From sequence record FJ373894: 64,000 bases of DNA; one strand, written 5' to 3'. The notes under the pieces are model-generated. The model made no database searches. It worked only from the letters and a program-made list of their open reading frames with translations, and was not told the DNA's origin. The stretch's first letter is position 1. Each line of letters starts with the position of its first letter. This DNA is from Shigella phage Ag3. A program made the translations under genes and the position numbers. Below are positions 4,321 to 46,061 of the stretch, one piece after another.

Positions 4321-4886
4321 TTACGTTCTCCGTAGAATTTAACGAACGGTGCCCAACCATCAAATGGATTGAGGAATTCGTAGTCCACTTCCATCTTGTC
4401 AATGAAAGCCTCTATATCGTCCTCTATGATACCAGCGCGGTCGGCCTTTGAAATGCGGGTGATAGGACATTTCGTACTCAGCGCCCATTCATATTCCTGA
4501 GGGGTACGCAGGTCACTCACGATGTAATGGACGTGAGGGTTCTGCTCTACCAGAGGAAGCTGGAAGCGCTTGAAGAACGCCAGGAACAGATCGGGCTGTA
4601 CATAACGCAAGCCCGTATCGCTGCCGAGATGGAGCCAGATCTGCCTTGGGGTTAAGCCCTTGGGGTTATCAGGGTGGACGTAAGGAACGTCCTTCACGGC
4701 ATCCTCTACCTCCGCTGGCAGCCATGGGTAGATGTAGTTGGCAACCCGGCGCAGTTCGTCTGAGAAAGAAAGACGCTGGATATCCATATCGCCCTGTAGA
4801 TGGTGATAGCTGATGAGGGACTCCAAACAGAAGTCCTTACCGGAGCGCTTGCGCCCCGTAAAGAATTCGAGGTTCGGGTACATCAT
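4317..4886 (-). CDS. 1: deoxynucleoside monophosphate kinase (T4 gp1-like)
   Basis: 189 aa; N-terminal P-loop FTGRKRSGKD matching T4 gp1 GVKRSGKD motif. Confidence 0.7.
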   Translation of the reverse strand: MMYPNLEFFTGRKRSGKDFCLESLISYHHLQGDMDIQRLSFSDELRRVANYIYPWLPAEVEDAVKDVPYVHPDNPKGLTPRQIWLHLGSDTGLRYVQPDLFLAFFKRFQLPLVEQNPHVHYIVSDLRTPQEYEWALSTKCPITRISKADRAGIIEDDIEAFIDKMEVDYEFLNPFDGWAPFVKFYGERK

Positions 4887-5932
4887 ACCACACCTTCCAG
4901 GAACTTAGGATCAACAATCTTGCGGTCAACTGGAGAATGGGTGAGCGCAATGTTCAAACCATGATCCTGAATCCGGTTCATGTTGATGAGCTTATCGTTC
5001 AGTTTGCAGTACAGGCAGTATGCCATTTGCATGATCAAGCCACGATCAGCATCATATTCCTTCAGGTGAGCAACCAAAGTTTCCCACGGGCTACCGATAT
5101 CACAATGATGGAGCACACCAGTGAACAGATTGCGGATATGGTTCTGGTTGGTCACGTTCTTGAAGTGAATCATGGAGTTGATGAACCCAGCTTCTACTTT
5201 GGTGTCCTTCGTGATCTTGCCCAGCTGCTTCTGGCTGACTTCATTGTTGTAGTAATGAAGATTGTTGGAGAAGAGCTTGTACTGGCCGACATCAACATCC
5301 AGCACCTGAGCAATCACTTCCTGAAGAATAGAGAACTCAATGAAGTTGATTGAACTCATCCCCCACAGAACATCCTGTGAGCGGTTGATGACCGTCAGGT
5401 TCAGGCGACCGTCAACGATGGCGAACAACAGAGCCAGGTTACACACCATGTCTTTAGTCTTCGCTTCGCCACTCTCGCTGAACTTCGCCAGGCCAGCATC
5501 TGAATCCAGAGCCGGATCATAGATGGTGAGGTACGCCTGACGGGTGTTTGGGTTCTTGCGCAGGCGGTTGATGACGCTATCCAGCTGGCCATGGGCGTAC
5601 AGACGCGGACCATAAGCGGCTCGCCATGTTACCCCATCATCCGAAAAGTTAGCAGCGCGAGGCAATACGCGTGACAGGAACTTTATGTCGTTGCGGCCTG
5701 ACAACACCCAGAAGGTCTCCCCAATAGCTGCGATAGCCGATGAGTTGCGACCTTCAACGGAGAGCCAGCGGTCACGAATATCGGAAACAGTGATCGTCAC
5801 ACCATCAAGGAATCGGGTGCCGTCCGTGTTGATCTCCGCGTTACCAGGGTCCGACTCAATTCCGTATTCGCGGATAGCCAAGACAGCCTGCTTCAGCATG
5901 TCATTGTTGTTAATTGCTTTGATTTCCATCAA
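4883..5932 (-). CDS. thymidylate synthase-family pyrimidine C5 methylase/hydroxymethylase
   Basis: 349 aa; TS-fold motifs (RQAYLTIYDP, catalytic Cys in KDMVCN, RSQDV...SINF with Asn at the pyrimidine-specificity position); longer than canonical ThyA and Cys-Asn replaces Pro-Cys-His. Confidence 0.75.
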   Translation of the reverse strand: MMEIKAINNNDMLKQAVLAIREYGIESDPGNAEINTDGTRFLDGVTITVSDIRDRWLSVEGRNSSAIAAIGETFWVLSGRNDIKFLSRVLPRAANFSDDGVTWRAAYGPRLYAHGQLDSVINRLRKNPNTRQAYLTIYDPALDSDAGLAKFSESGEAKTKDMVCNLALLFAIVDGRLNLTVINRSQDVLWGMSSINFIEFSILQEVIAQVLDVDVGQYKLFSNNLHYYNNEVSQKQLGKITKDTKVEAGFINSMIHFKNVTNQNHIRNLFTGVLHHCDIGSPWETLVAHLKEYDADRGLIMQMAYCLYCKLNDKLINMNRIQDHGLNIALTHSPVDRKIVDPKFLEGVV

Positions 5933-38492: not shown

Positions 38493-39270
38493 TATTCTTT
38501 TTCTCCCGTTCTTCTAATCTTTGTTTGAGGGCTTCCCAATCTGGTTCCATCGCACAGATATCATCTTCCAGATTGAATTGGGTTTTGCCGAAGTCCTGAT
38601 CTGAATTGTCTTCGGCCTGCGCTGTTACCGTATTCTTAGCCTGCGCCATGTATTGAAGTATGCCTTTCGCAATCTTTTTATTCGATTCTGCGAGACGAGC
38701 CGCCTCCACCTTCTCTCGCTCCTTCTGCCTTTGAGCGTCCTTTTTGTTCTCAAAGTTGCCGATACGTTCACGGAAGTCCATGCCAATCCCTGTCGCATCA
38801 ACAAAGATCTCTTGTTGGAAGTCAGGGTCGTCTGCCAGGCCTGCGAACCCACCCGCCTCTTCAAATGAGCGCAATTTGATGTACGTATGTTCTTCTTCGA
38901 TATTCAGTTTACGAGCAAATGAGCGATCTGCACACATGGTCACCCAAGAGAAGAAGTTGATCTTCCCTTTCTTTCCAATGTGGTCGACGTCAAAGGTGTG
39001 GAGGTAACGCAGGATGTTGACGATTGCTTCAGAGACCATGTCTTCACGGAAGGGATAGTCGCGATAGTTGTAGCGGGTGCTCATCTTGGTGATGATGCGC
39101 TGGACCTGTAGAGCAACATAGTTGGGGATCTTTGGAAGCCTGGTGCCTTCAGCCAGAGCCTTCTTACGAGCAGGGATCCAATCACGAAGGATACTGATGA
39201 CACGCTCGTTATCTTCGTCCGTGAAATATTTGACGACATTCTCGCCACGATCAACATAATTCATACCCAT
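38479..39270 (-). CDS. 55: late-transcription sigma factor (T4 gp55-like)
   Basis: 263 aa; block similarity to T4 gp55 and position immediately after genes 46-47 as in T4; T4-type late promoter boxes found elsewhere in window. Confidence 0.5.
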   Translation of the reverse strand: MGMNYVDRGENVVKYFTDEDNERVISILRDWIPARKKALAEGTRLPKIPNYVALQVQRIITKMSTRYNYRDYPFREDMVSEAIVNILRYLHTFDVDHIGKKGKINFFSWVTMCADRSFARKLNIEEEHTYIKLRSFEEAGGFAGLADDPDFQQEIFVDATGIGMDFRERIGNFENKKDAQRQKEREKVEAARLAESNKKIAKGILQYMAQAKNTVTAQAEDNSDQDFGKTQFNLEDDICAMEPDWEALKQRLEEREKKNNGDC

Positions 39271-39281
39271 TGTGGGAACCC

Positions 39282-39809
39282 TCAGATACCGATAAATTCA
39301 TCAAAAGATCCAACAACCTTCTTCACTGAGATCTTGTCATTCTCAATCAGGAAGTTGCTGTCGTTTTTGGCTGCTGTGGCCCAGTCATCGGCAAGTTCGT
39401 TACCTTCGTGCCCCGCATGACCCTTAACCCATTTTAGTTCAACTTCACAAATTGAACAAACGAGATCATAGATTCTGAACAGATCTTTGATGAGTTCAAC
39501 GTTCTTGTCTGGGAAACCCTGATACTCCCACTTCGCTCGCCATTCGGTGACGCTCTTGATGGTGTATTGACTGTCAGACCAAATTGTTGCCTTTGGTATT
39601 CTGCGCTCACCCTTTCCTGAGAATGCCCACAGCAGCTTCAATGCGTTGGTCACACCCAACAACTCGGCGATGTTGTTGGTGGACGGGGGAGGTAGGTGAC
39701 CGAAGAACACCTTCCATTGCATACCCGATATTGGCCTGATGACAAATGCCCATCCTGCGGCCTGGTTGGTCTTCGGGTTAGAACCCCCGTCAGAATAAAT
39801 TTCTATCAT
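39282..39809 (-). CDS. rnhA: ribonuclease HI
   Basis: ORF 39282..39905, start at ATG 39807-39809 (MIEIYSDGGS); RNase H DEDD motifs (YSDGG, NNIAEL, DSQY, GHAGHEGNELAD). Confidence 0.8.
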   Translation of the reverse strand: MIEIYSDGGSNPKTNQAAGWAFVIRPISGMQWKVFFGHLPPPSTNNIAELLGVTNALKLLWAFSGKGERRIPKATIWSDSQYTIKSVTEWRAKWEYQGFPDKNVELIKDLFRIYDLVCSICEVELKWVKGHAGHEGNELADDWATAAKNDSNFLIENDKISVKKVVGSFDEFIGI

Positions 39810-39811
39810 GA

Positions 39812-39819
39812 TATAAATA
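39812..39819 (+). promoter_or_regulatory. T4-type late promoter box TATAAATA
   Basis: exact TATAAATA about 35 nt upstream of ATG 39855. Confidence 0.5.
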
Positions 39820-39854
39820 TCCCAAACTGGTTTTATAGAAAGAGGAATGAAACT

Positions 39855-40622
39855 ATGGCACCCCGCGCATATCGTTTCAGTCTCACCGCCCCGCAGATTG
39901 AGCAATTGCTCCTTTCTATCAATGATGCTATCAAGTCAGAAGATATCATCTATGATTATGCTGCAGGTGGGACTGTTGGGCAAGTCGCAGCAGCGTCTGC
40001 CGTCAAGAACATGTGGTTGAAGCTCAACGAGATGGTAACAGGCCAAGGCCTCAAAGATGCCATCAACGCTGCAGAAGACAGCAACGTGTTCACTGACTAT
40101 TATAAGTCTTTACTGGATCGCGAAGGCTGGAAATTTATTGGGTCTCCGGCAGATGAACTTGAGCGAGGCGACATCGACACCGCGAACTTCACGGGTGGTG
40201 AGGTCATTCTACTTCAGAAGAACGCTTCAGGCAACCCCGAATTCCAATACTGGAAGCGAACCCCGGTTGCTGGGGGTGATCCTACCTTTGCATGGGCTTC
40301 GGTCTATGAAGGGAACTCCAATGACTCTTCCATTGAGATCCCTGTGGTTGGCACCAGCGTACTCAAGGACATCCCCAAGGCGCTCTTCCATATGATCGAG
40401 TTCAGAGTGCATGTCTACGATGAGACACTGGGTCATTGGCAGGACACCGACGGAAAAGTAGGGTATCGTGGCGAGGATCTGTTCTACAGCGTCTACAACC
40501 ATGTTCAGACCAAACCTCTCGCCACCATTGACTTCAGTCAAGACACAGATAGCATGACAGTCTCTGTTACTTCCCTGGAGCCGAATGTCAAATGCCATCT
40601 GTCGTTTATCGCTGGTTACTAA
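39855..40622 (+). CDS. late-expressed protein (putative virion component)
   Basis: ORF 39696..40622, start at ATG 39855 (MAPRAYRF) with AGAGGAA RBS and TATAAATA box about 35 nt upstream. Confidence 0.5.
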   Translation: MAPRAYRFSLTAPQIEQLLLSINDAIKSEDIIYDYAAGGTVGQVAAASAVKNMWLKLNEMVTGQGLKDAINAAEDSNVFTDYYKSLLDREGWKFIGSPADELERGDIDTANFTGGEVILLQKNASGNPEFQYWKRTPVAGGDPTFAWASVYEGNSNDSSIEIPVVGTSVLKDIPKALFHMIEFRVHVYDETLGHWQDTDGKVGYRGEDLFYSVYNHVQTKPLATIDFSQDTDSMTVSVTSLEPNVKCHLSFIAGY

Positions 40623-42337
40623 ACCTCGAACACGGCATCAGTAAACCAAGCGGGGAAGAACTCTGGGTTGCGCATCATCAGTGATTCAAAAGAAGAATCA
40701 AGGATGTATGTCGCAGCCCAGTCATTCACGCCCCTGACCGAACGCCCGCACATCTGAACGATACGCAGTACCGCCATCCTGAAGTACGCCGATGGGTCTA
40801 CACTGTTGACGTGAGCCACCAGAGGATCACCAAGGTAATCGTATGGAACCTTGATCAAGATCTGAAATCGGCTGTAATCGCCTTTGAAGTCATACCCCTC
40901 TTCCATAGCCGGACTGGCGATGACACAAGGCGTCTTCGTCCGGAACGCGTGTTCCATGATGTCCATCAGAGCCTTACGAGTACGAGGAACGTGAATCATA
41001 TTCCGGTACTTACTGAACTTCTGTAGAGCCAGGGCGCGGTCATAACTTACTGTGTGAATGATACCAGACTGCCCAGGGTGGAATGCGATGATTTCATCCA
41101 CGTATTCGGCCAGCTTCTTCATCTCATAGTCACCCATGTTCGCCGTCATCTTCATGATGGGCATGTAGTTGACTTTCCGGTTCTCAATCGGGATAGGGTT
41201 GCCGATCTGAATCTTGTGGTACTCGCCCTCACGGATACCCAGTGACCGAGCGTACGAGTCAATCCCACAAATGGTCGCCGACATGTGAACGTGGTAGTCA
41301 CCCTTGCGGAACAGGCCGAACTGGGATACATCAGATGCGATGACAGGCTTGAACTGAATCATACCCTTGTCCTTCTCCTGCACGATGAAGGTGCTGGCGT
41401 TGGTCTGCCCCATGATCCCACAGTAGTCGCTGAGGTTGTGAAGGGTGTCAATGATGTCCGACAACTTCATCACCTGGGCTTCAGTCAGGCGCTCGTCCTC
41501 TACCAGTTCCTCAAGAGTTTCCAGCAGGGCTTCAACCTTGTCATGCAGGTCGTCAAATATCGAATGCATCTCGCCTGTTAGTGAGTACAGCTTGCCCAGC
41601 TCATAGTTCTCTGTGCGCCTGATGATATCCGTGATGGTCTCCACGATAGGCACTCCCTCGGGGATCGTAAGCAACCCCCTTACAGCATTTATACTGTATT
41701 CCATGATCGTGTGCTCTAGGAGCGTAGAGGGCATCTTATGGCACTCGTCAAGGATCAGCATATCGGCGCGGTTTTCCGGCTTCATACAGATCGTCGTGCA
41801 CATCTCCACCATCATGGCGGCGTTGGTGCAGCGCAGAGAAGAGATGTCCGTCCACTGACGACGCGCCTGAACATATGGACAACGATTCTTGTTACAGTGG
41901 CCATCTCGGCATGCCATACGGCACTGGATGGCGTTGTAATACAGGTCAGGGCTGATATGGCAACGATAGTTCTTCTTGCCCTTCAGGATGTCTATCGCCA
42001 CGGCTTTCTCCGCCGCATACTGATCCTGCAGACCTTTGGTCGGTGTTGTGATAGACGTGCGGAACTGGCCATATGGGTTGCGCTCAAGAACCAGATGGCG
42101 AAGCACATTATGAATGGTAGTGCCGATGAGGGATTTGCCCACACCAGTCGGAGCCTCGATGATCACGTGTTTGAATTTCTTATTCACAAGGGCATCAACG
42201 GCTTCAACGATGCATTCCATCTGTCCTGGGTTGGCGGTGTCGTATGGGAAGAACTCAGTGGCAAGAGACTTGATGCGGTCTATGCTAACTGGTCCGACGC
42301 CATCAAGCGCCTTGGTATATTGGTTGAATGCTGTCAC
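40619..42337 (-). CDS. DinG/XPD-like superfamily 2 DNA helicase with Fe-S cluster domain
   Basis: 572 aa; Walker A APTGVGKS, DEAH-type box ILDECHK, four-Cys cluster (CHISPD..CRMACRDGHCNKNRCP). Confidence 0.75.
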   Translation of the reverse strand: MTAFNQYTKALDGVGPVSIDRIKSLATEFFPYDTANPGQMECIVEAVDALVNKKFKHVIIEAPTGVGKSLIGTTIHNVLRHLVLERNPYGQFRTSITTPTKGLQDQYAAEKAVAIDILKGKKNYRCHISPDLYYNAIQCRMACRDGHCNKNRCPYVQARRQWTDISSLRCTNAAMMVEMCTTICMKPENRADMLILDECHKMPSTLLEHTIMEYSINAVRGLLTIPEGVPIVETITDIIRRTENYELGKLYSLTGEMHSIFDDLHDKVEALLETLEELVEDERLTEAQVMKLSDIIDTLHNLSDYCGIMGQTNASTFIVQEKDKGMIQFKPVIASDVSQFGLFRKGDYHVHMSATICGIDSYARSLGIREGEYHKIQIGNPIPIENRKVNYMPIMKMTANMGDYEMKKLAEYVDEIIAFHPGQSGIIHTVSYDRALALQKFSKYRNMIHVPRTRKALMDIMEHAFRTKTPCVIASPAMEEGYDFKGDYSRFQILIKVPYDYLGDPLVAHVNSVDPSAYFRMAVLRIVQMCGRSVRGVNDWAATYILDSSFESLMMRNPEFFPAWFTDAVFEV

Positions 42338-42389
42338 TTTCTTCCTCCTATGGGATTCGCCTTTAGTTTAACCGATTCCCAGGAACGAA

Positions 42390-42416
42390 AAAGCCGGAGT
42401 ACAATGCTCCGGCTTT
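42390..42416 (-). terminator. rho-independent terminator downstream of HU gene
   Basis: AAAGCCGGAG-tacaatg-CTCCGGCTTT 10-bp stem with T-run on minus strand. Confidence 0.6.
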
Positions 42417-42465
42417 CTCTTTTGTCACGCCCCGCGTTGCAGAGGCCGGACCGAACCAGGTTGAA

Positions 42466-42744
42466 TTACTTGCCGTTGGCAGCGTTCTTCAGACCTTCGC
42501 CCACTTTAAATTTCACAACGTTTTTCGCTTCGATCTGAATGGTCTGGCCGTTCAGAGGGTTACGACCTTCACGAGCTTCCTGGTGCTTCACTTCGAACGC
42601 GCCGAAGCCGACCAGCTGTACAGATGCGCCTGCAGCAACTGCAGTTTTAACGCCGTCGATAAAGGATGCCACTACTTTCTCCGCTTCGCCTTTGGTGATG
42701 TTCTGGGTCGAAGCAATGTGGGCAACAAATTCAGTACGATTCAT
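42466..42744 (-). CDS. HU/IHF-family DNA-binding protein
   Basis: 92 aa; HU signature (GFGAFEV..R.GRNP.NGQ). Confidence 0.85.
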   Translation of the reverse strand: MNRTEFVAHIASTQNITKGEAEKVVASFIDGVKTAVAAGASVQLVGFGAFEVKHQEAREGRNPLNGQTIQIEAKNVVKFKVGEGLKNAANGK

Positions 42745-42837
42745 CTGGATTTCTCCGTTGGGTTAATGTTTACTTTCATGTTCACTACAAGAGGACTACA
42801 GTTTAACTAAGAAATTTTATTGAATAAAGCGGAATTA

Positions 42838-43086
42838 TTAGCCTTTCGCCACGTCTTCAGTCGTCATCGTGCCATAACATCCGCAGCGTTCACAAATCAC
42901 TCTGACGCAAGGCTTAAAAGTCTGAACATTAGACACAGGAACGTTCACCGCCCTTGAAGAAACCTGCATTTCGCGGACTTCAACCCGTTGTTCGACCAGG
43001 CGCTCATCGTCCAAGAAGGTGATCGTCTTGTGAGGACAACGTATTGACGATTCACCAACCCAGATTATTGCCATGTTGGGACTCAT
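42838..43086 (-). CDS. small cysteine-rich (zinc-binding) protein
   Basis: 82 aa; CPHK and CERCGC motifs. Confidence 0.4.
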   Translation of the reverse strand: MSPNMAIIWVGESSIRCPHKTITFLDDERLVEQRVEVREMQVSSRAVNVPVSNVQTFKPCVRVICERCGCYGTMTTEDVAKG

Positions 43087-43361
43087 GATTTGACCTCCGA
43101 TTTGGAGATTAACAATTCCATCTCTGCTCTGGTGACAATCGTTTCTACATGAACATCATCTATCAGCATCTCGTTCAGAAGATCGTACCCCAGGACTTGC
43201 ACACCAAAAGACTTTTTGTTCAGTTCTGACTCTATGTCGAGAACTCGCTGAACCGTTAGACCGCCGGAAGAGAATGGGACCGGATAGAAGGTGGAACGCA
43301 CTTGGGCACACCCATTCACGCTGTATCGAACCAGCAGGACATCACACCATACGCCAGCCAT
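43083..43361 (-). CDS. hypothetical protein
   Basis: 92-aa ORF. Confidence 0.4.
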   Translation of the reverse strand: MAGVWCDVLLVRYSVNGCAQVRSTFYPVPFSSGGLTVQRVLDIESELNKKSFGVQVLGYDLLNEMLIDDVHVETIVTRAEMELLISKSEVKS

Positions 43362-43362
43362 G

Positions 43363-44046
43363 TTACACCTCCACCGCGTGAGACTTCAGGAGTTCATCAA
43401 TCGCTTTCTGTCCCATATAAGAGAATGGGGTGCGCTGGTAGAATGCCCACAGAACCAACTGAACGACAGCGCGGGAACGGGTTTCGGCTCGCATCACCAG
43501 GTCGCTGAAATGAGGAGACTGCGCCGTCCATTGGATCTCTTCGCCCAGGTCTTGATTACAGGTCACGGAGATGCGGAACTTGTTGCACAGATTGTCGACT
43601 TCTTTGTACGCATCGGTAGACACCCGAAGTTGGTCTGCATGCGCCCATGGTGTCGTGACGATTCTTTCACCCATCACTTTATCAGAGATAAACCAATCAA
43701 TGGATTCAACAAACTTGCCGAAATGGTCGATGCGATAAATGCAGTCTCCCCCTTCCATAGAACGCATGGCATGATAGCGAGCGTCGATTTCGTTGTTGTG
43801 CATCGCGTTGAAGTCGATGAACACGCGACGCGCCAACACAACATCTTCCGGCTCCAGAGGGATGTATTCCCCTTCGTTGCTAGACCTCCGGATGTTCGGA
43901 TAATGTAGAATGCCGCTTAAATGCCCAGTGCAATATACATAACGAGGTCCAACACCCCCGACACGAGCATGAGCGACATAGGATGGTTCTGTGAATCGCA
44001 AGTGGCCTTGATCGGCACCGACGATAATAGAATAAAGTTTTTCCAT
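43363..44046 (-). CDS. hypothetical protein
   Basis: ORF 43363..44061; ATG 44044-44046 preceded by conserved AGACTATATC motif and 5-prime hairpin. Confidence 0.45.
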   Translation of the reverse strand: MEKLYSIIVGADQGHLRFTEPSYVAHARVGGVGPRYVYCTGHLSGILHYPNIRRSSNEGEYIPLEPEDVVLARRVFIDFNAMHNNEIDARYHAMRSMEGGDCIYRIDHFGKFVESIDWFISDKVMGERIVTTPWAHADQLRVSTDAYKEVDNLCNKFRISVTCNQDLGEEIQWTAQSPHFSDLVMRAETRSRAVVQLVLWAFYQRTPFSYMGQKAIDELLKSHAVEV

Positions 44047-44068
44047 GATATAGTCTCTCAAATGAAAA

Positions 44069-44092
44069 GGGCGACCTTATGATAAGTCGCCC
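44069..44092 (-). promoter_or_regulatory. leader stem-loop upstream of gene 43363..44046
   Basis: GGGCGAC-cttatgataa-GTCGCCC 7-bp stem. Confidence 0.45.
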
Positions 44093-44103
44093 GAGGTTAT
44101 TGA

Positions 44104-45012
44104 TTATTGGAAATCACCAACATACATGTTCAGCTTGTCATCCCAGTTCAGAACAACACGGATCGTTGCGGTATCTTCTGGGAAGGTCAGTTTGTCACAC
44201 ATGGCGCGATTAACATAAGTCCCACTCTGGTTCACGTTGTAGTCCTTGCCTTGCATGATACCAAAACGCTTGAAGTCCCGTGTCACCATCATGTTCAGGG
44301 TCGCCCATGGGAGTGATTCACGCAATGCTTTACACAGGATAATCTTTCCATTCGGCCTGAATGATACAAACAACTCATTAGCAACCCGGCGGCGGGTGGG
44401 CGCCTCGAGTTCGCGCAGGGAGATAAATTCAGAGGGATCGTCCAATGCACCCAGGGTGATCATGTCTTCGCGAACTTTATTGACAATTTCAGTTACTGCT
44501 GACACGACTTCAACTGCCGGATTCGTCTTAAATGGCTCAACAGTCGTGGACATCTTGGATACAGACATCCCGTTGCCGTTGCGCTTCTCTGCATATTGCT
44601 CGACGGACTTGTCGCTCACTGGAGGCAGTTTGGTGGCAGGAGTTATGACCGGGCTTGCATCTGGTTTCGCCTTTGGAGTACTCCGAGCCGCACGCAGCTT
44701 TTCCTGGGCTTCCAGAATGCGCTCTTGACGAGAAAGTGGAGCCTTTGGGGTGATCTTCGTACTGAAGTCGGAAACACCCACCCAGTCACCCTGGTCATTA
44801 CGCTTGGCGACCAGAGTCAGTTTGTGGATGATGCCCTGAAGTTTGCTCTCACGCAAGTTGTCGGCATACCAGAACTTCGCGCCCATCTCGAACTTCTCGG
44901 CGAAGATCACGCGAGCGTCTTCGTGCACCAACATAACTTTGGCTGTGTTGGGGGCAAAAGCCTTATTCTTTTCGATAATCGCCGCAGCGATTGATTTGGT
45001 CAGGAGCATCAC
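44104..45012 (-). CDS. hypothetical protein
   Basis: 302-aa ORF with Pro/Lys-rich central linker. Confidence 0.45.
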   Translation of the reverse strand: MMLLTKSIAAAIIEKNKAFAPNTAKVMLVHEDARVIFAEKFEMGAKFWYADNLRESKLQGIIHKLTLVAKRNDQGDWVGVSDFSTKITPKAPLSRQERILEAQEKLRAARSTPKAKPDASPVITPATKLPPVSDKSVEQYAEKRNGNGMSVSKMSTTVEPFKTNPAVEVVSAVTEIVNKVREDMITLGALDDPSEFISLRELEAPTRRRVANELFVSFRPNGKIILCKALRESLPWATLNMMVTRDFKRFGIMQGKDYNVNQSGTYVNRAMCDKLTFPEDTATIRVVLNWDDKLNMYVGDFQ

Positions 45013-45060
45013 AGTGTATTCCTTCAGTTCACAATGTAGGGCTAAATTTTAACCCGAAAC

Positions 45061-45378
45061 TTATTTTTGAAATCCGACAAAGTCCTGGGCAATCCCCCGA
45101 CAATACATCAGATCTTTCTTCGTTTGTGGGCTGTTATCAGCCGCAGTCAGCATCATGGGAAGATCCAGCGCATTCTCTATCTGATCAACACTGAACAGAT
45201 CAAGGCGCTTCAGCTCTCCCTCGAAGTCAGACAGGAGGATAGATGTATCTTTGTCGTCTGGATGGAATTGCTGATACGTCTCCATCCAGGCGGCGCAGGT
45301 ATTCAGTTTAGACGGTGGTGTGGCGTTTACACACCCGGCCATCAGTAACAGCAGGAGTAGGATTTTACCTTTCATCAC
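45061..45378 (-). CDS. lipoprotein (lipobox LMAGC)
   Basis: 105 aa; N-terminal signal with lipobox, three additional Cys. Confidence 0.5.
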   Translation of the reverse strand: MMKGKILLLLLLMAGCVNATPPSKLNTCAAWMETYQQFHPDDKDTSILLSDFEGELKRLDLFSVDQIENALDLPMMLTAADNSPQTKKDLMYCRGIAQDFVGFQK

Positions 45379-46061
45379 TCGTTCTCCTTCATCATATTGT
45401 CGCAGTCAACACGAGTCTGCTGGAGTTCGCGCGACATGCGAGGATCATCAAGGTTCACGCTCAGATTCGTGGCCAAGTCTTTCAGACCGTTCTGAACACG
45501 ATCCTCAAAATAATGGTCGTTCTCAACCAGCCAGGCTCTGAGGCCAAGAGCGCGAGTACGCCATTCCTTCTTCAGGACGCGATCAGAGGTCTGCGTAGCG
45601 CTGTATTCGAATACTTTGATGCACTGATTGCCATCGTTGATGAGGTTCAGGTGACGGCGGCCTATCTGCACACCCTTCTGTAATGCCGGAGAAGGGAGAG
45701 AACGGCACTGTCTGACTGTCATTCGGCCTTGGGTGCCCATACGCCCAGTCATGATAAGATCGCCAGCCTCCATGCCGCCTCGATTAAATTCATCGTCATT
45801 GAGGTAGCCCTTGAGGTTATAGGCTCCCTGTTTGTAACGGTTGAACTCAATCCCAGCATTGACCACAGCAGTGGAGACGTTGCCCGTGTTCCAGAGTTCA
45901 GCAAAGTTCTCTATGGAACCAGACTTGTCGATGGCGACTGCCTGGGAGAACCCAGCACAGTAGGAAAGATCAGACCACAGTTTGTCACCTGTGGAGTTCA
46001 GCTTGGCGGCGGCGGGTAATGCCAGACCAGCCAGCACGACCCCGAGGATTAAACGTTTCAT
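45375..46061 (-). CDS. secreted periplasmic protein
   Basis: ORF 45375..46154, start at ATG 46059-46061 (MKRLILGVVLAGLALPAAA) with GGAG RBS; cleavable signal peptide; stop overlaps lipoprotein start. Confidence 0.5.
   Translation of the reverse strand: MKRLILGVVLAGLALPAAAKLNSTGDKLWSDLSYCAGFSQAVAIDKSGSIENFAELWNTGNVSTAVVNAGIEFNRYKQGAYNLKGYLNDDEFNRGGMEAGDLIMTGRMGTQGRMTVRQCRSLPSPALQKGVQIGRRHLNLINDGNQCIKVFEYSATQTSDRVLKKEWRTRALGLRAWLVENDHYFEDRVQNGLKDLATNLSVNLDDPRMSRELQQTRVDCDNMMKENE

Follow-up and report, generated by a model that had tools for sequence, protein, structure and literature searches.

A Putative Iron-Sulfur Helicase of the XPD/DinG Superfamily and an HU-Family Protein Encoded by Shigella Phage Ag3

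Introduction

The proteins of solved structure nearest to the phage helicase described here are DinG, XPD, FANCJ, and CHL1, all of which are repair helicases. E. coli DinG (6FWR/6FWS) is a 716 aa protein encoded by an SOS-regulated host gene and consists of a superfamily 2 (SF2) core with a DExH-type motif II, an Arch domain, a C-terminal Helicase_C_2 domain, and a cysteine cluster that ends in C-P-[YF] ahead of motif II. The first cysteine ligand of DinG lies far upstream of the others. Archaeal XPD, represented by the T. acidophilum protein (4A15/2VSF) and about 550 to 620 aa in size, has the same four-domain architecture as the XPD of TFIIH. E. coli DinG is reported to help replication across transcribed regions (PMC2770101). 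The helicase set of phage T4 has gp41, Dda, and UvsW, and the XPD/DinG family is outside it, as the original prediction for the locus analyzed here had pointed out. Dda is an SF1B enzyme without sequence homology to the phage helicase and can be compared with it as a proposed functional analog only.

Bacterial HU (1HUU of B. stearothermophilus, HupA/HupB of E. coli) is a protein of about 90 aa that carries a GFG segment and the arm residues R58, R61, and P63, and in E. coli HU-alpha position 55 is R. The SPO1-type phages, whose DNA contains hmU, also have an HU homolog, TF1, with chains of 99 aa. The DNA of the Ackermannviridae contains 5-NeOmdU, a hypermodified thymidine derived from 5-hmdU (PMC11721090). 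We analyzed a stretch of 64,000 nucleotides (hereafter, the window) from Shigella phage Ag3 (FJ373894), an Agtrevirus-like member of the Ackermannviridae; the nearest relatives of the window are P46FS4, SW16-7, and Gloob.

Results

The Helicase Gene and Its Family

The 572 aa helicase and the HU-like protein that had been predicted in the window were both found as ORFs at exactly the positions claimed for them. The helicase gene is defined by the following features:

40619..42337, minus strand: coding sequence of an SF2 helicase of the XPD/DinG family, 572 aa, with a GTG start
42344..42349, minus strand: ribosome-binding site AGGAGG of the helicase gene, seen directly in the sequence

The length and start of the protein are the same in annotated relatives, and a ribosome-binding site is annotated at the equivalent place in Marshall. 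Profile searches matched the helicase to PHROG 2488 (E = 4.9e-261) and to the Pfam families Helicase_C_2, ResIII, and DEAD, but not to DEAD_2 (PF06733). With a profile of the family searched against PDB sequences, the best match was DinG (2.2e-20; 1.1e-06 by phmmer), followed by T. acidophilum XPD (7e-15), then other Rad3/XPD proteins (to 3e-14), CHL1, and FANCJ. The AlphaFold2 model (pLDDT 88.1, pTM 0.87) has a predicted fold of four domains (HD1, FeS, Arch, and HD2), as in the solved DinG and XPD structures. Searched with Foldseek, it again matched E. coli DinG best (6fws; E = 1.1e-25, TM 0.66 to 0.67), XPD/Rad3 structures were found at 1e-22 to 1e-19, and matches 1 to 42 were all DinG, XPD, Rad3, or CasDinG. 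The profile matches, the conservation of the cysteines, and the modeled fold all place the helicase in the XPD/DinG (Rad3) Fe-S SF2 superfamily, as originally predicted.

Membership of the superfamily does not extend to orthology with its named enzymes. The helicase scores 67 bits with the NCBIfam DinG model (NF008729; cut-off 598), 57.9 bits with YoaA (NF053712; cut-off 680), and 26 bits with Rad3 (TIGR00604; cut-off 247), so far under these cut-offs that it is a superfamily member and no ortholog of DinG, YoaA, or Rad3. Together with the missing DEAD_2 match, these low scores mean that DinG or XPD function is transferable at the superfamily level only. Judged by sequence, the helicase is part of a separate, mostly viral subfamily. 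It shares the SF2 core with a DExH motif II, the Arch domain, the Helicase_C_2 domain, and the C-P-[YF] end of the cysteine cluster with DinG but is only about 16% identical to it and shorter, and its gene belongs to a lytic phage and is not an SOS-regulated host gene. It is similar in size and predicted domain architecture to archaeal XPD, yet the phage genome is without TFIIH or nucleotide excision repair (NER) partners. The fold of CasDinG (Csf4) is also similar (Foldseek 6e-20), at an identity of 11%.

Conserved Motifs and the Four-Cysteine Segment

Conservation was scored across 253 helicase homologs that are 25 to 98% identical. The motifs and the cysteine segment are as follows:

42131..42154, minus strand: motif I (Walker A), A62-PTGVGKS69, with G65, G67, and K68 in 252 to 253 of 253 homologs
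41879..41962, minus strand: putative 4Fe-4S segment from the homolog alignment, C126-x12-C139-x8-C148-x4-C153, then P154-Y155
41738..41749, minus strand: motif II (Walker B), D197-E198-C199-H200, DExH type, with D and E in 253 of 253 homologs and H in 251
40733..40756, minus strand: motif VI, Q528-xx-G531-R532-xx-R535, with Q, G, R, and R each in 253 of 253 homologs

The SF2 motifs Q, I, Ia, II, III, and VI have all been preserved; the Q motif glutamine, Q39, is present in 252 of the homologs and the residues S-A-T in 230 to 248. The motifs had originally been described as DEAH-type, which is right insofar as motif II is of the DExH type, but it reads DECH rather than literally DEAH, position 199 being C in 175 homologs and A in 56. 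With these residues in place, the protein looks like an active SF2 helicase.

The helicase has 14 cysteines, and the four conserved ones lie between motifs Ia and II. C126 and C153 are found in every homolog, C148 in 250, and C139 in 238, and C153 is followed by P154 in 161 and Y155 in 248; the predicted four-cysteine domain therefore holds, its cysteines being invariant or nearly so. Neither of the two grounds on which the original prediction could have failed, poorly conserved cysteines or a Walker B motif without its acidic residues, was borne out in the 253 homologs. The "NC...ECPF" segment of DinG aligns with C148 and C153, whereas the tight C-x12-C-x8-C-x4-C spacing of the phage protein is unlike that of DinG and of XPD/Rad3. 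The most likely role of C126, C139, C148, and C153 is to ligate a 4Fe-4S cluster; they could instead hold zinc.

Distribution and Genomic Neighborhood

The helicase gene is carried by 496 phage records, and its relatives amount to 5,604 cluster representatives at 50% identity. Some sources label relatives "Rad3-related DNA helicase." The subfamily is spread widely in the T4 superfamily and in haloarchaeal tailed viruses, where the homologs are 27% identical. The gene is listed in the published core genome of the Ackermannviridae (PMC10892097, Table 5) and is widespread in T4-like phages outside the Tevenvirinae; it is no unusual addition. Annotations of both the helicase and HU genes are present in hundreds of GenBank records: the observation is correct but ordinary, the two being already annotated core genes of the Ackermannviridae. 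In the searchable literature, we found no biochemical or genetic data on the helicase family, and a search for a characterized phage XPD/DinG helicase or Ackermannviridae HU returned genome descriptions and one core-gene table only.

The setting of the two genes had been called a T4-type replication module. One flank fits this description, with genes for gp46, gp47, gp55, and RNase HI, but the other is made up of small hypothetical genes and spanins. RNase HI is near the helicase gene in Ackermannviridae and in Aeromonas phage TSW001, and in phiM9 the nearby genes include one for a T4-type RNase H and one that is EndoV-like. The HU and helicase genes are adjacent only in four enterobacterial genera of the Ackermannviridae; in Aeromonas TSW001, Acinetobacter SH-Ab 15599, and phiM9, they are not neighbors. 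An arrangement so restricted by lineage reflects common ancestry and not a joint function, and we rejected the idea that the HU-like protein and the helicase act together as a pair.

The surroundings of the wider subfamily were surveyed by calling ORFs on 80 viral contigs with helicase relatives and clustering the neighbors, in a sample that comes mostly from one environmental T4-like group. The commonest neighbors were small unknown proteins, a gp15-like sheath stabilizer, the gp20 portal, and dCMP deaminase; immediately downstream of the approximately 80 relatives were a gp15-like gene in about 35 and gp20 in 22. No conserved replication or repair partner was found beside the helicase relatives in these approximately 80 environmental neighborhoods.

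We did not detect any homolog of T4 Dda by TBLASTN in the window or in the full P46FS4 genome (best E 0.9), nor was one found in the complete phiM9 genome (best E 0.085). The helicases annotated in P46FS4 and phiM9 are gp41-like, UvsW, and the XPD/DinG-like helicase. Coarse record counts show a largely complementary distribution: 165 Salmonella phage records have the helicase and 50 have any Dda match, and 740 Escherichia phage records have Dda and 32 the helicase.

The HU-Family Gene, Its Terminator, and Upstream Region

The HU-like gene is accompanied by two noncoding features:

42466..42744, minus strand: coding sequence of an HU/IHF-family protein, 92 aa, with an ATG start after GGAG
42388..42416, minus strand: intrinsic terminator of the HU gene, a hairpin and U-tract, from folding, shuffles, and compensatory changes
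42782..42830, minus strand: noncoding block upstream of HU, a candidate promoter or 5′-UTR element, conserved in four Ackermannviridae genera

The protein matches Pfam PF00216 (Bac_DNA_binding) over its full length (E = 5.9e-30; residues 1 to 90 on profile positions 1 to 90 of 90), and 34 HU/IHF sequences in the PDB match it at E ≤ 1e-5, the best HU at 1e-18 to 1e-19. Its scores with the NCBIfam models for HU-alpha, HU-beta, and IHF-alpha/beta, 65 to 73 bits, are under the cut-offs of 111 to 162. The translation contains G46-F47-G48, R58, and the arm motif R61-N62-P63, as bacterial HU does, and position 55 is Q. We take the R-N-P with its intercalating proline and the other arm residues to be DNA-binding, their roles being known from HU structures. 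Other phage HU homologs are 37 to 47% identical, and a second HU-family gene is present in the genome. A recent capture of host hupA or hupB was considered and rejected, since E. coli HU is matched less closely (about 6e-15 to 2e-14) than Bacillus HU (about 1e-18 to 1e-19) and the identity to a Salmonella HU is no more than about 40%.

The terminator stem, AAAGCCGGAG/CTCCGGCTTT at 42390..42416, has the core GCCGGAG/CTCCGGC and is followed by five U. It folds with a dG of −21.6 kcal/mol (z −3.3), a value as good as which was reached by none of 200 shuffles, and a terminator is annotated at the equivalent place in Marshall. Compensatory stem changes, seen directly in the intergenic alignment, preserve the pairing in CBA120, 0507-KN2-1, and phiEa2809. 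In this alignment, the phiEa2809 hairpin is shifted relative to the others, and RNAalifold for that reason did not detect the terminator. The original prediction of an HU-family gene with its own terminator is borne out by the full-length Pfam match and by the hairpin and U-tract.

An Rfam scan of 39000..46000 detected no RNA families. The sequence GTTAAACT is found upstream of both genes and occurs three times in the window, a count matched by 8 of 100 shuffles, and for that reason we rejected it as a general promoter motif; a looser form, KTAARCTRWA, has four matches in the window, two of them within coding regions.

Discussion

The account that we favor, at somewhat better than even confidence, is that of an active-looking Fe-S helicase in an accessory 5′ to 3′ role together with an architectural HU protein. 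The helicase has a pair of RecA-like motor domains and a helical Arch domain, with a compact insertion placed between motifs Ia and II; if it behaves like DinG and XPD, it would move 5′ to 3′ on single-stranded DNA. From the presence of gp41-like and UvsW-like helicases and the lack of Dda in the genomes of P46FS4 and phiM9, we infer that it serves as the accessory 5′ to 3′ helicase, a third one beside gp41 and UvsW. In this role, it may remove bound proteins as well as R-loops and D-loops in repair and in origin-dependent and recombination-dependent replication, alongside the nearby RNase HI and gp46/gp47. The HU-like protein, whose beta-arm residues are intact, probably forms a dimer, and its most likely function is to bend and coat the DNA of the phage. 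In the proteome of CsCl-purified virions (PMC10892097, Table 6), neither it nor the helicase was detected, and HU may aid replication, recombination, or transcription in the cell, not in the virion. Its terminator may also insulate the helicase gene.

The strongest competitor, which we nonetheless regard as unlikely, is that the helicase is dedicated to DNA repair, checking or unwinding damaged DNA in XPD-like NER or acting in DinG/YoaA-like damage tolerance, and provides extra repair rather than replication capacity. The repair functions of its nearest solved relatives speak for this, as do the nearby recombination nuclease genes for gp46/gp47 and a gene for a pyrimidine-dimer glycosylase of the T4 EndoV type, which in P46FS4 lies at a distance of about 5 kb and in phiM9 about 600 bp downstream. 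Partners resembling UvrA/B/C, TFIIH, or chi (HolC) were not seen in the annotated genomes, and a strictly core gene where Dda is absent fits a housekeeping role in replication and recombination. Since Dda is missing from these genomes, a replacement accessory helicase would fit at least as well as the additional repair capacity originally suggested, to which we still allow a minor share of the probability. The roles of repair and replication overlap in phages of the T4 type, which makes the two readings partly compatible.

For the HU-like protein, it is doubtful that it is a TF1-type regulator, selective for hypermodified DNA and acting in an early-to-late switch, rather than a general architectural protein. 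Several GenBank records name the gene "transcription factor 1," Ackermannviridae DNA carries the 5-hmdU-derived base 5-NeOmdU, SPO1-type hmU phages also have an HU homolog (37% identity for that of SP82G), and the conserved upstream region suggests strong, regulated expression. SPO1 TF1, however, is matched less well (E = 2e-10 to 5e-10) than ordinary bacterial HU, the protein is shorter than the TF1 chains and is without their extra C-terminal residues, and the second HU-family gene complicates the assignment of a role. The labels look like name transfer by annotation pipelines, and the "TF1" label in these records is unsupported; a TF1-like preference for modified DNA would be speculation.

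Far less probable is a function in anti-defense or host takeover, in which the helicase would remove the R-loops that CRISPR effectors form or dislodge host proteins or nucleases from phage DNA, and the original suggestion that it counters host interference found no support. The helicase does match the PADLOC model PDLC01439 ("typeIV_DinG, CAS-IV-A associated") over its full length (E = 1.9e-51), which implies that close relatives occur beside type IV CRISPR loci, and RNA/DNA hybrids are unwound by DinG-type enzymes (PMC10450177). The canonical CasDinG (Csf4) models match only weakly (1.4e-07 and 1.3e-04), no cas genes are nearby, and the surrounding genes are those of phage replication, lysis, and structure rather than CRISPR. 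The same study describes the FeS domain of CasDinG as vestigial, whereas the four cysteines of the phage helicase are invariant or nearly so. Typical anti-defense loci are variable, unlike this core gene at a fixed position in the Ackermannviridae beside recombination and late-transcription genes, and no experimental hint of such a function was found. That the protein is an inactive pseudo-helicase or purely structural, for which we found no supporting point, can practically be dismissed, given that Walker A GxGK[ST], Walker B D-E, and motif VI QxxGRxxR are kept in all 253 homologs, the Q motif in 252, and the motif II histidine in 251, that the reading frame is unbroken and preceded by a strong ribosome-binding site, and that the protein is undetected in virions.

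The accessory role may be extended, in a bolder form that we hold only tentatively and consider improbable as a whole, to a nonorthologous replacement of Dda throughout the T4 superfamily outside the Tevenvirinae, spanning the Ackermannviridae, Pootjesviridae, PhiW-14, and many marine T4-like phages. In phages whose DNA contains hypermodified thymidine, the helicase would be adapted to thread bulky 5-hmdU-derived bases through its FeS/Arch pore, the feature that makes cellular XPD stall at bulky adducts, and the co-conserved HU protein would be matched to this modified DNA as well.

For annotation, the gain is that a "DNA helicase" becomes an XPD/DinG-superfamily enzyme with four invariant or nearly invariant putative Fe-S cysteine ligands. 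Ackermannviridae are common in biocontrol and diagnostics, and knowledge of their essential replication factors is thus of some practical use. If the replacement of Dda is true, it would explain how a large share of the T4 superfamily manages without Dda, and a small, soluble-looking viral Fe-S helicase would offer a model for XPD-type motors on modified DNA.

Gene structure and terminator

The original prediction of two genes in this segment, one for a helicase and one for an HU-like protein with its own terminator, was borne out by the ORF listing, the intergenic sequence, RNA folding, and the annotation of phage Marshall.

40619..42337 (-), helicase ORF, 572 aa
42466..42744 (-), HU-like ORF, 92 aa
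42390..42416, hairpin AAAGCCGGAG-CATTGTA-CTCCGGCTTT, G+C-rich core, then five U on the coding strand

As read from the sequence, the helicase has a GTG start codon 6 bases past AGGAGG, and its start and length are identical in annotated relatives. The hairpin sits in the 128 nt that separate the two ORFs, has a folding energy of -21.6 kcal/mol (z = -3.3; none of 200 shuffles as stable), and occupies the position equivalent to a terminator annotated in Marshall. Alignment revealed stems altered on both sides with pairing kept in CBA120 (GCCGAGG/CCTCGGC) and 0507-KN2-1 (GCCGGGG/CCCCGGC), and a different G+C hairpin with a T-run in phiEa2809. The original observation is therefore correct throughout, save that motif II, described as DEAH-type, is of the DExH type and reads DECH rather than a literal DEAH.

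The helicase belongs to the XPD/DinG superfamily

The helicase matches Pfam Helicase_C_2, ResIII, and DEAD, and PHROG 2488 ("DNA helicase"; 4.9e-261). Searched against the PDB, the single sequence matched E. coli DinG at 1.1e-06, and a 26-sequence family profile matched DinG (2.2e-20), T. acidophilum XPD (7e-15), and then Rad3/XPD, CHL1, and FANCJ, all Fe-S helicases. An AlphaFold2 model built with the family alignment was confident (pLDDT 88.1, pTM 0.87), and its best 42 Foldseek matches in the PDB were all DinG, XPD/Rad3, or CasDinG, headed by DinG 6FWS (E = 1.1e-25, TM 0.66). Conservation was assessed in 253 full-length homologues of 25-98% identity taken from two large protein searches. 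Cysteines C126 and C153 are invariant, C139 is kept in 238 and C148 in 250, and Y155, past C153, in 248; ten further cysteines are less conserved. Walker A G-x-G-K, Walker B D-E, and motif VI QxxGRxxR are present in all 253, the motif II histidine in 251, and the Q motif in 252. The prediction had allowed that the four cysteines might vary among homologues or that the Walker B acids might be missing; these counts therefore establish that both are retained, and the family assignment, now grounded in profile search, cysteines, and Foldseek, was right.

Judged by its sequence, the protein is a superfamily member and the orthologue of no named cellular enzyme. Against NCBIfam models it reaches 67 bits for DinG (cut-off 598), 57.9 for YoaA (680), and 26 for Rad3 (247), and a Pfam search gave no match to DEAD_2. 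The "NC...ECPF" segment of DinG aligns with C148 and C153, and the phage spacing, C-x12-C-x8-C-x4-C, is tighter than DinG's. The PADLOC model PDLC01439 ("typeIV_DinG; CAS-IV-A; associated") matches over the full length at 1.9e-51, far above the canonical Csf4 models, which match weakly; there is no CRISPR context around the gene. The viral-type helicase subfamily may include some of the DinG proteins associated with type IV-A.

Clustered at 50% identity, the family has 5604 representatives at E<=1e-3 (1125 at E<=1e-30), and it occurs in 496 records of sequenced phages: enterobacterial Ackermannviridae; Vibrio, Aeromonas, and Acinetobacter phages; Delftia phage PhiW-14; Rhizobium and Sinorhizobium T4-like phages; haloarchaeal tailed viruses, where it is named "Rad3-related DNA helicase"; and Bacillus phage G and some jumbo phages. 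In GenBank it goes under "DNA helicase", "ATP-dependent helicase", or "dinG", and the Vi01-like core genome table lists a "putative ATP-dependent helicase" with an adjacent "putative DNA binding protein" (PMC10892097, Table 5); the gene is thus already known and annotated. Literature searches turned up neither biochemical nor genetic work on it.

The HU-like protein

The match of the HU-like protein to Pfam Bac_DNA_binding spans the whole domain (5.9e-30), numerous HU and IHF proteins of solved structure are also matched, and its translation retains the arm motif G46-F47-G48, R58, R61-N62-P63. Its NCBIfam scores fall under the cut-offs of HU-alpha, HU-beta, and IHF. Recent capture from the host was rejected because identity to a Salmonella HU is only ~40%. 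Several records name the gene "transcription factor 1", which looks like a name transfer: SPO1 TF1 is matched at 2e-10 to 5e-10, more weakly than Bacillus HU (~1e-18 to 1e-19), and has a longer C-terminus that this protein lacks. P46FS4 has another HU-family gene, ORF167 ("histone family DNA-binding", 166 aa; positions 43600-44100 of record L006), outside the window, and its entry in the published core genome is a "putative histone like protein" (PMC10892097, Table 5). HU and the helicase both went undetected in a virion proteome (PMC10892097, Table 6), a result that favours action inside the cell.

42782..42830 (-), conserved non-coding block preceding HU in four Ackermannviridae genera, containing G(G/T)TAA(A/G)CTGTAG
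42362..42372 (-), GGTAAACTATA box resembling the HU upstream motif, 20-30 nt before the helicase start codon

The upstream block is strikingly conserved across the four genera even where HU is just 47% identical, suggesting a conserved promoter or leader; block and box are both candidate elements of this kind. The motif showed no enrichment across the window.

Genomic surroundings

By megablast and tblastn the window is Ackermannviridae, closest to Agtrevirus phages: 40000..43500 is ~95-97% identical in nucleotides to P46FS4, SKML-39, Gloob, and MK-13, the helicase shares 99% identity with its SW16-7 homologue, and HU 100% with that of Gloob. Limestonevirus phiD3 (KM209228) and Kuttervirus Marshall (KF669653) have helicase alleles 97-98% identical (aa) to this one, and Maynard (KF669654) has an HU that is 98.9% identical, whereas most Kuttervirus phages reach just 83-86%; these alleles suggest inter-genus exchange of 40619..42744.

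39282..39905 (-), RNase HI long ORF, 207 aa, TTG start, mechanical ORF call
39282..39809 (-), RNase HI short form, 175 aa in relatives, internal ATG ("MIEIYSDGG...")
39812..39819 (+), T4-type late-promoter box TATAAATA, 36 nt ahead of the convergent gene's ATG
39855..40622 (+), convergent gene, 255 aa, PHROG 3833, stop overlapping the helicase stop by 4 nt
42838..44061 (-), 82-aa ORF (PHROG 31251), 92-aa DUF7425 protein, and 232-aa protein (PHROG 5426)

In the P46FS4 annotation, RNase HI, gp55 late sigma, and gp47/gp46 lie on one flank, spanins and small hypothetical genes on the other, and primase, clamp, clamp loader, UvsW, and NrdAB farther off; Ackermannviridae genes are more scattered than those of Tevenvirinae (PMC11721090). 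The phrase "T4-type replication module" therefore fits only loosely: gp46/gp47, gp55, and RNase HI adjoin, but primase, clamp, and clamp loader are distant.

The PHROG 3833 gene looks like a late gene in opposite orientation between helicase and RNase HI; some relatives annotate it as a structural or baseplate protein. The short RNase HI is probably correct, because the long ORF would cross the opposite gene's late-promoter box; the RNase_H Pfam match starts at residue 35 of the long ORF. In Marshall, RNase HI and gp55 are separated by a GIY-YIG homing endonuclease gene (positions 4535-5269 of record L001); the window (~39270..39282) lacks it and has 11 nt between RNase HI and gp55. The HU-spanin stretch (42838..44061) varies among relatives, and BLAST matches break in two there; in other genera the position is taken by "superinfection exclusion" and SPFH lipoprotein genes.

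Agtrevirus, Kuttervirus, Taipeivirus, and Nezavisimistyvirus share the gene order HU, helicase, convergent gene, RNase HI; in Aeromonas TSW001, Acinetobacter SH-Ab 15599, and phiM9 HU and helicase are not neighbours, and the terminator separates the pair. The adjacency is a mark of common ancestry rather than of a functional unit.

A probable accessory role for the helicase

T4 has three helicases, gp41, UvsW, and Dda. P46FS4, the closest relative, has in its complete genome as annotated helicases a gp41-like primase-helicase, UvsW, and this protein, and no others; a search with T4 Dda gave no hit in that genome or in the window, the best E of 0.9 being a P-loop match in PhoH. A distant relative, Sinorhizobium phage phiM9, has the same triad without Dda. 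Among Salmonella phage records the helicase occurs in 165 and any Dda match in only 50; among Escherichia phage records Dda occurs in 740 and the helicase in only 32. From these triads and counts we infer that this helicase would serve as the accessory 5'->3' helicase of replication and recombination.

Near the helicase there is repeatedly a gene for RNase H: RNase HI in both Ackermannviridae and Aeromonas TSW001, T4-type RNase H together with an EndoV-like gene in phiM9. E. coli DinG is known to act in replication across transcribed regions (PMC2770101). This neighbour and precedent make clearance of R-loops, D-loops, and bound proteins the likeliest activity. A dedicated repair role, the main rival, is rather unlikely and would be compatible with the accessory one; a survey of 80 environmental relatives found no constant neighbour partner. 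Earlier suggestions of added repair or nucleoid-organising capacity, or of countering host interference, are at best partly supported.

HU and the helicase are confirmed, and both are core genes that were already known and annotated. Ackermannviridae DNA contains 5-NeOmdU, a hypermodified thymidine (PMC11721090), and the sole forward-looking element is the proposal that the helicase may replace Dda, together with the idea of a link to modified DNA.
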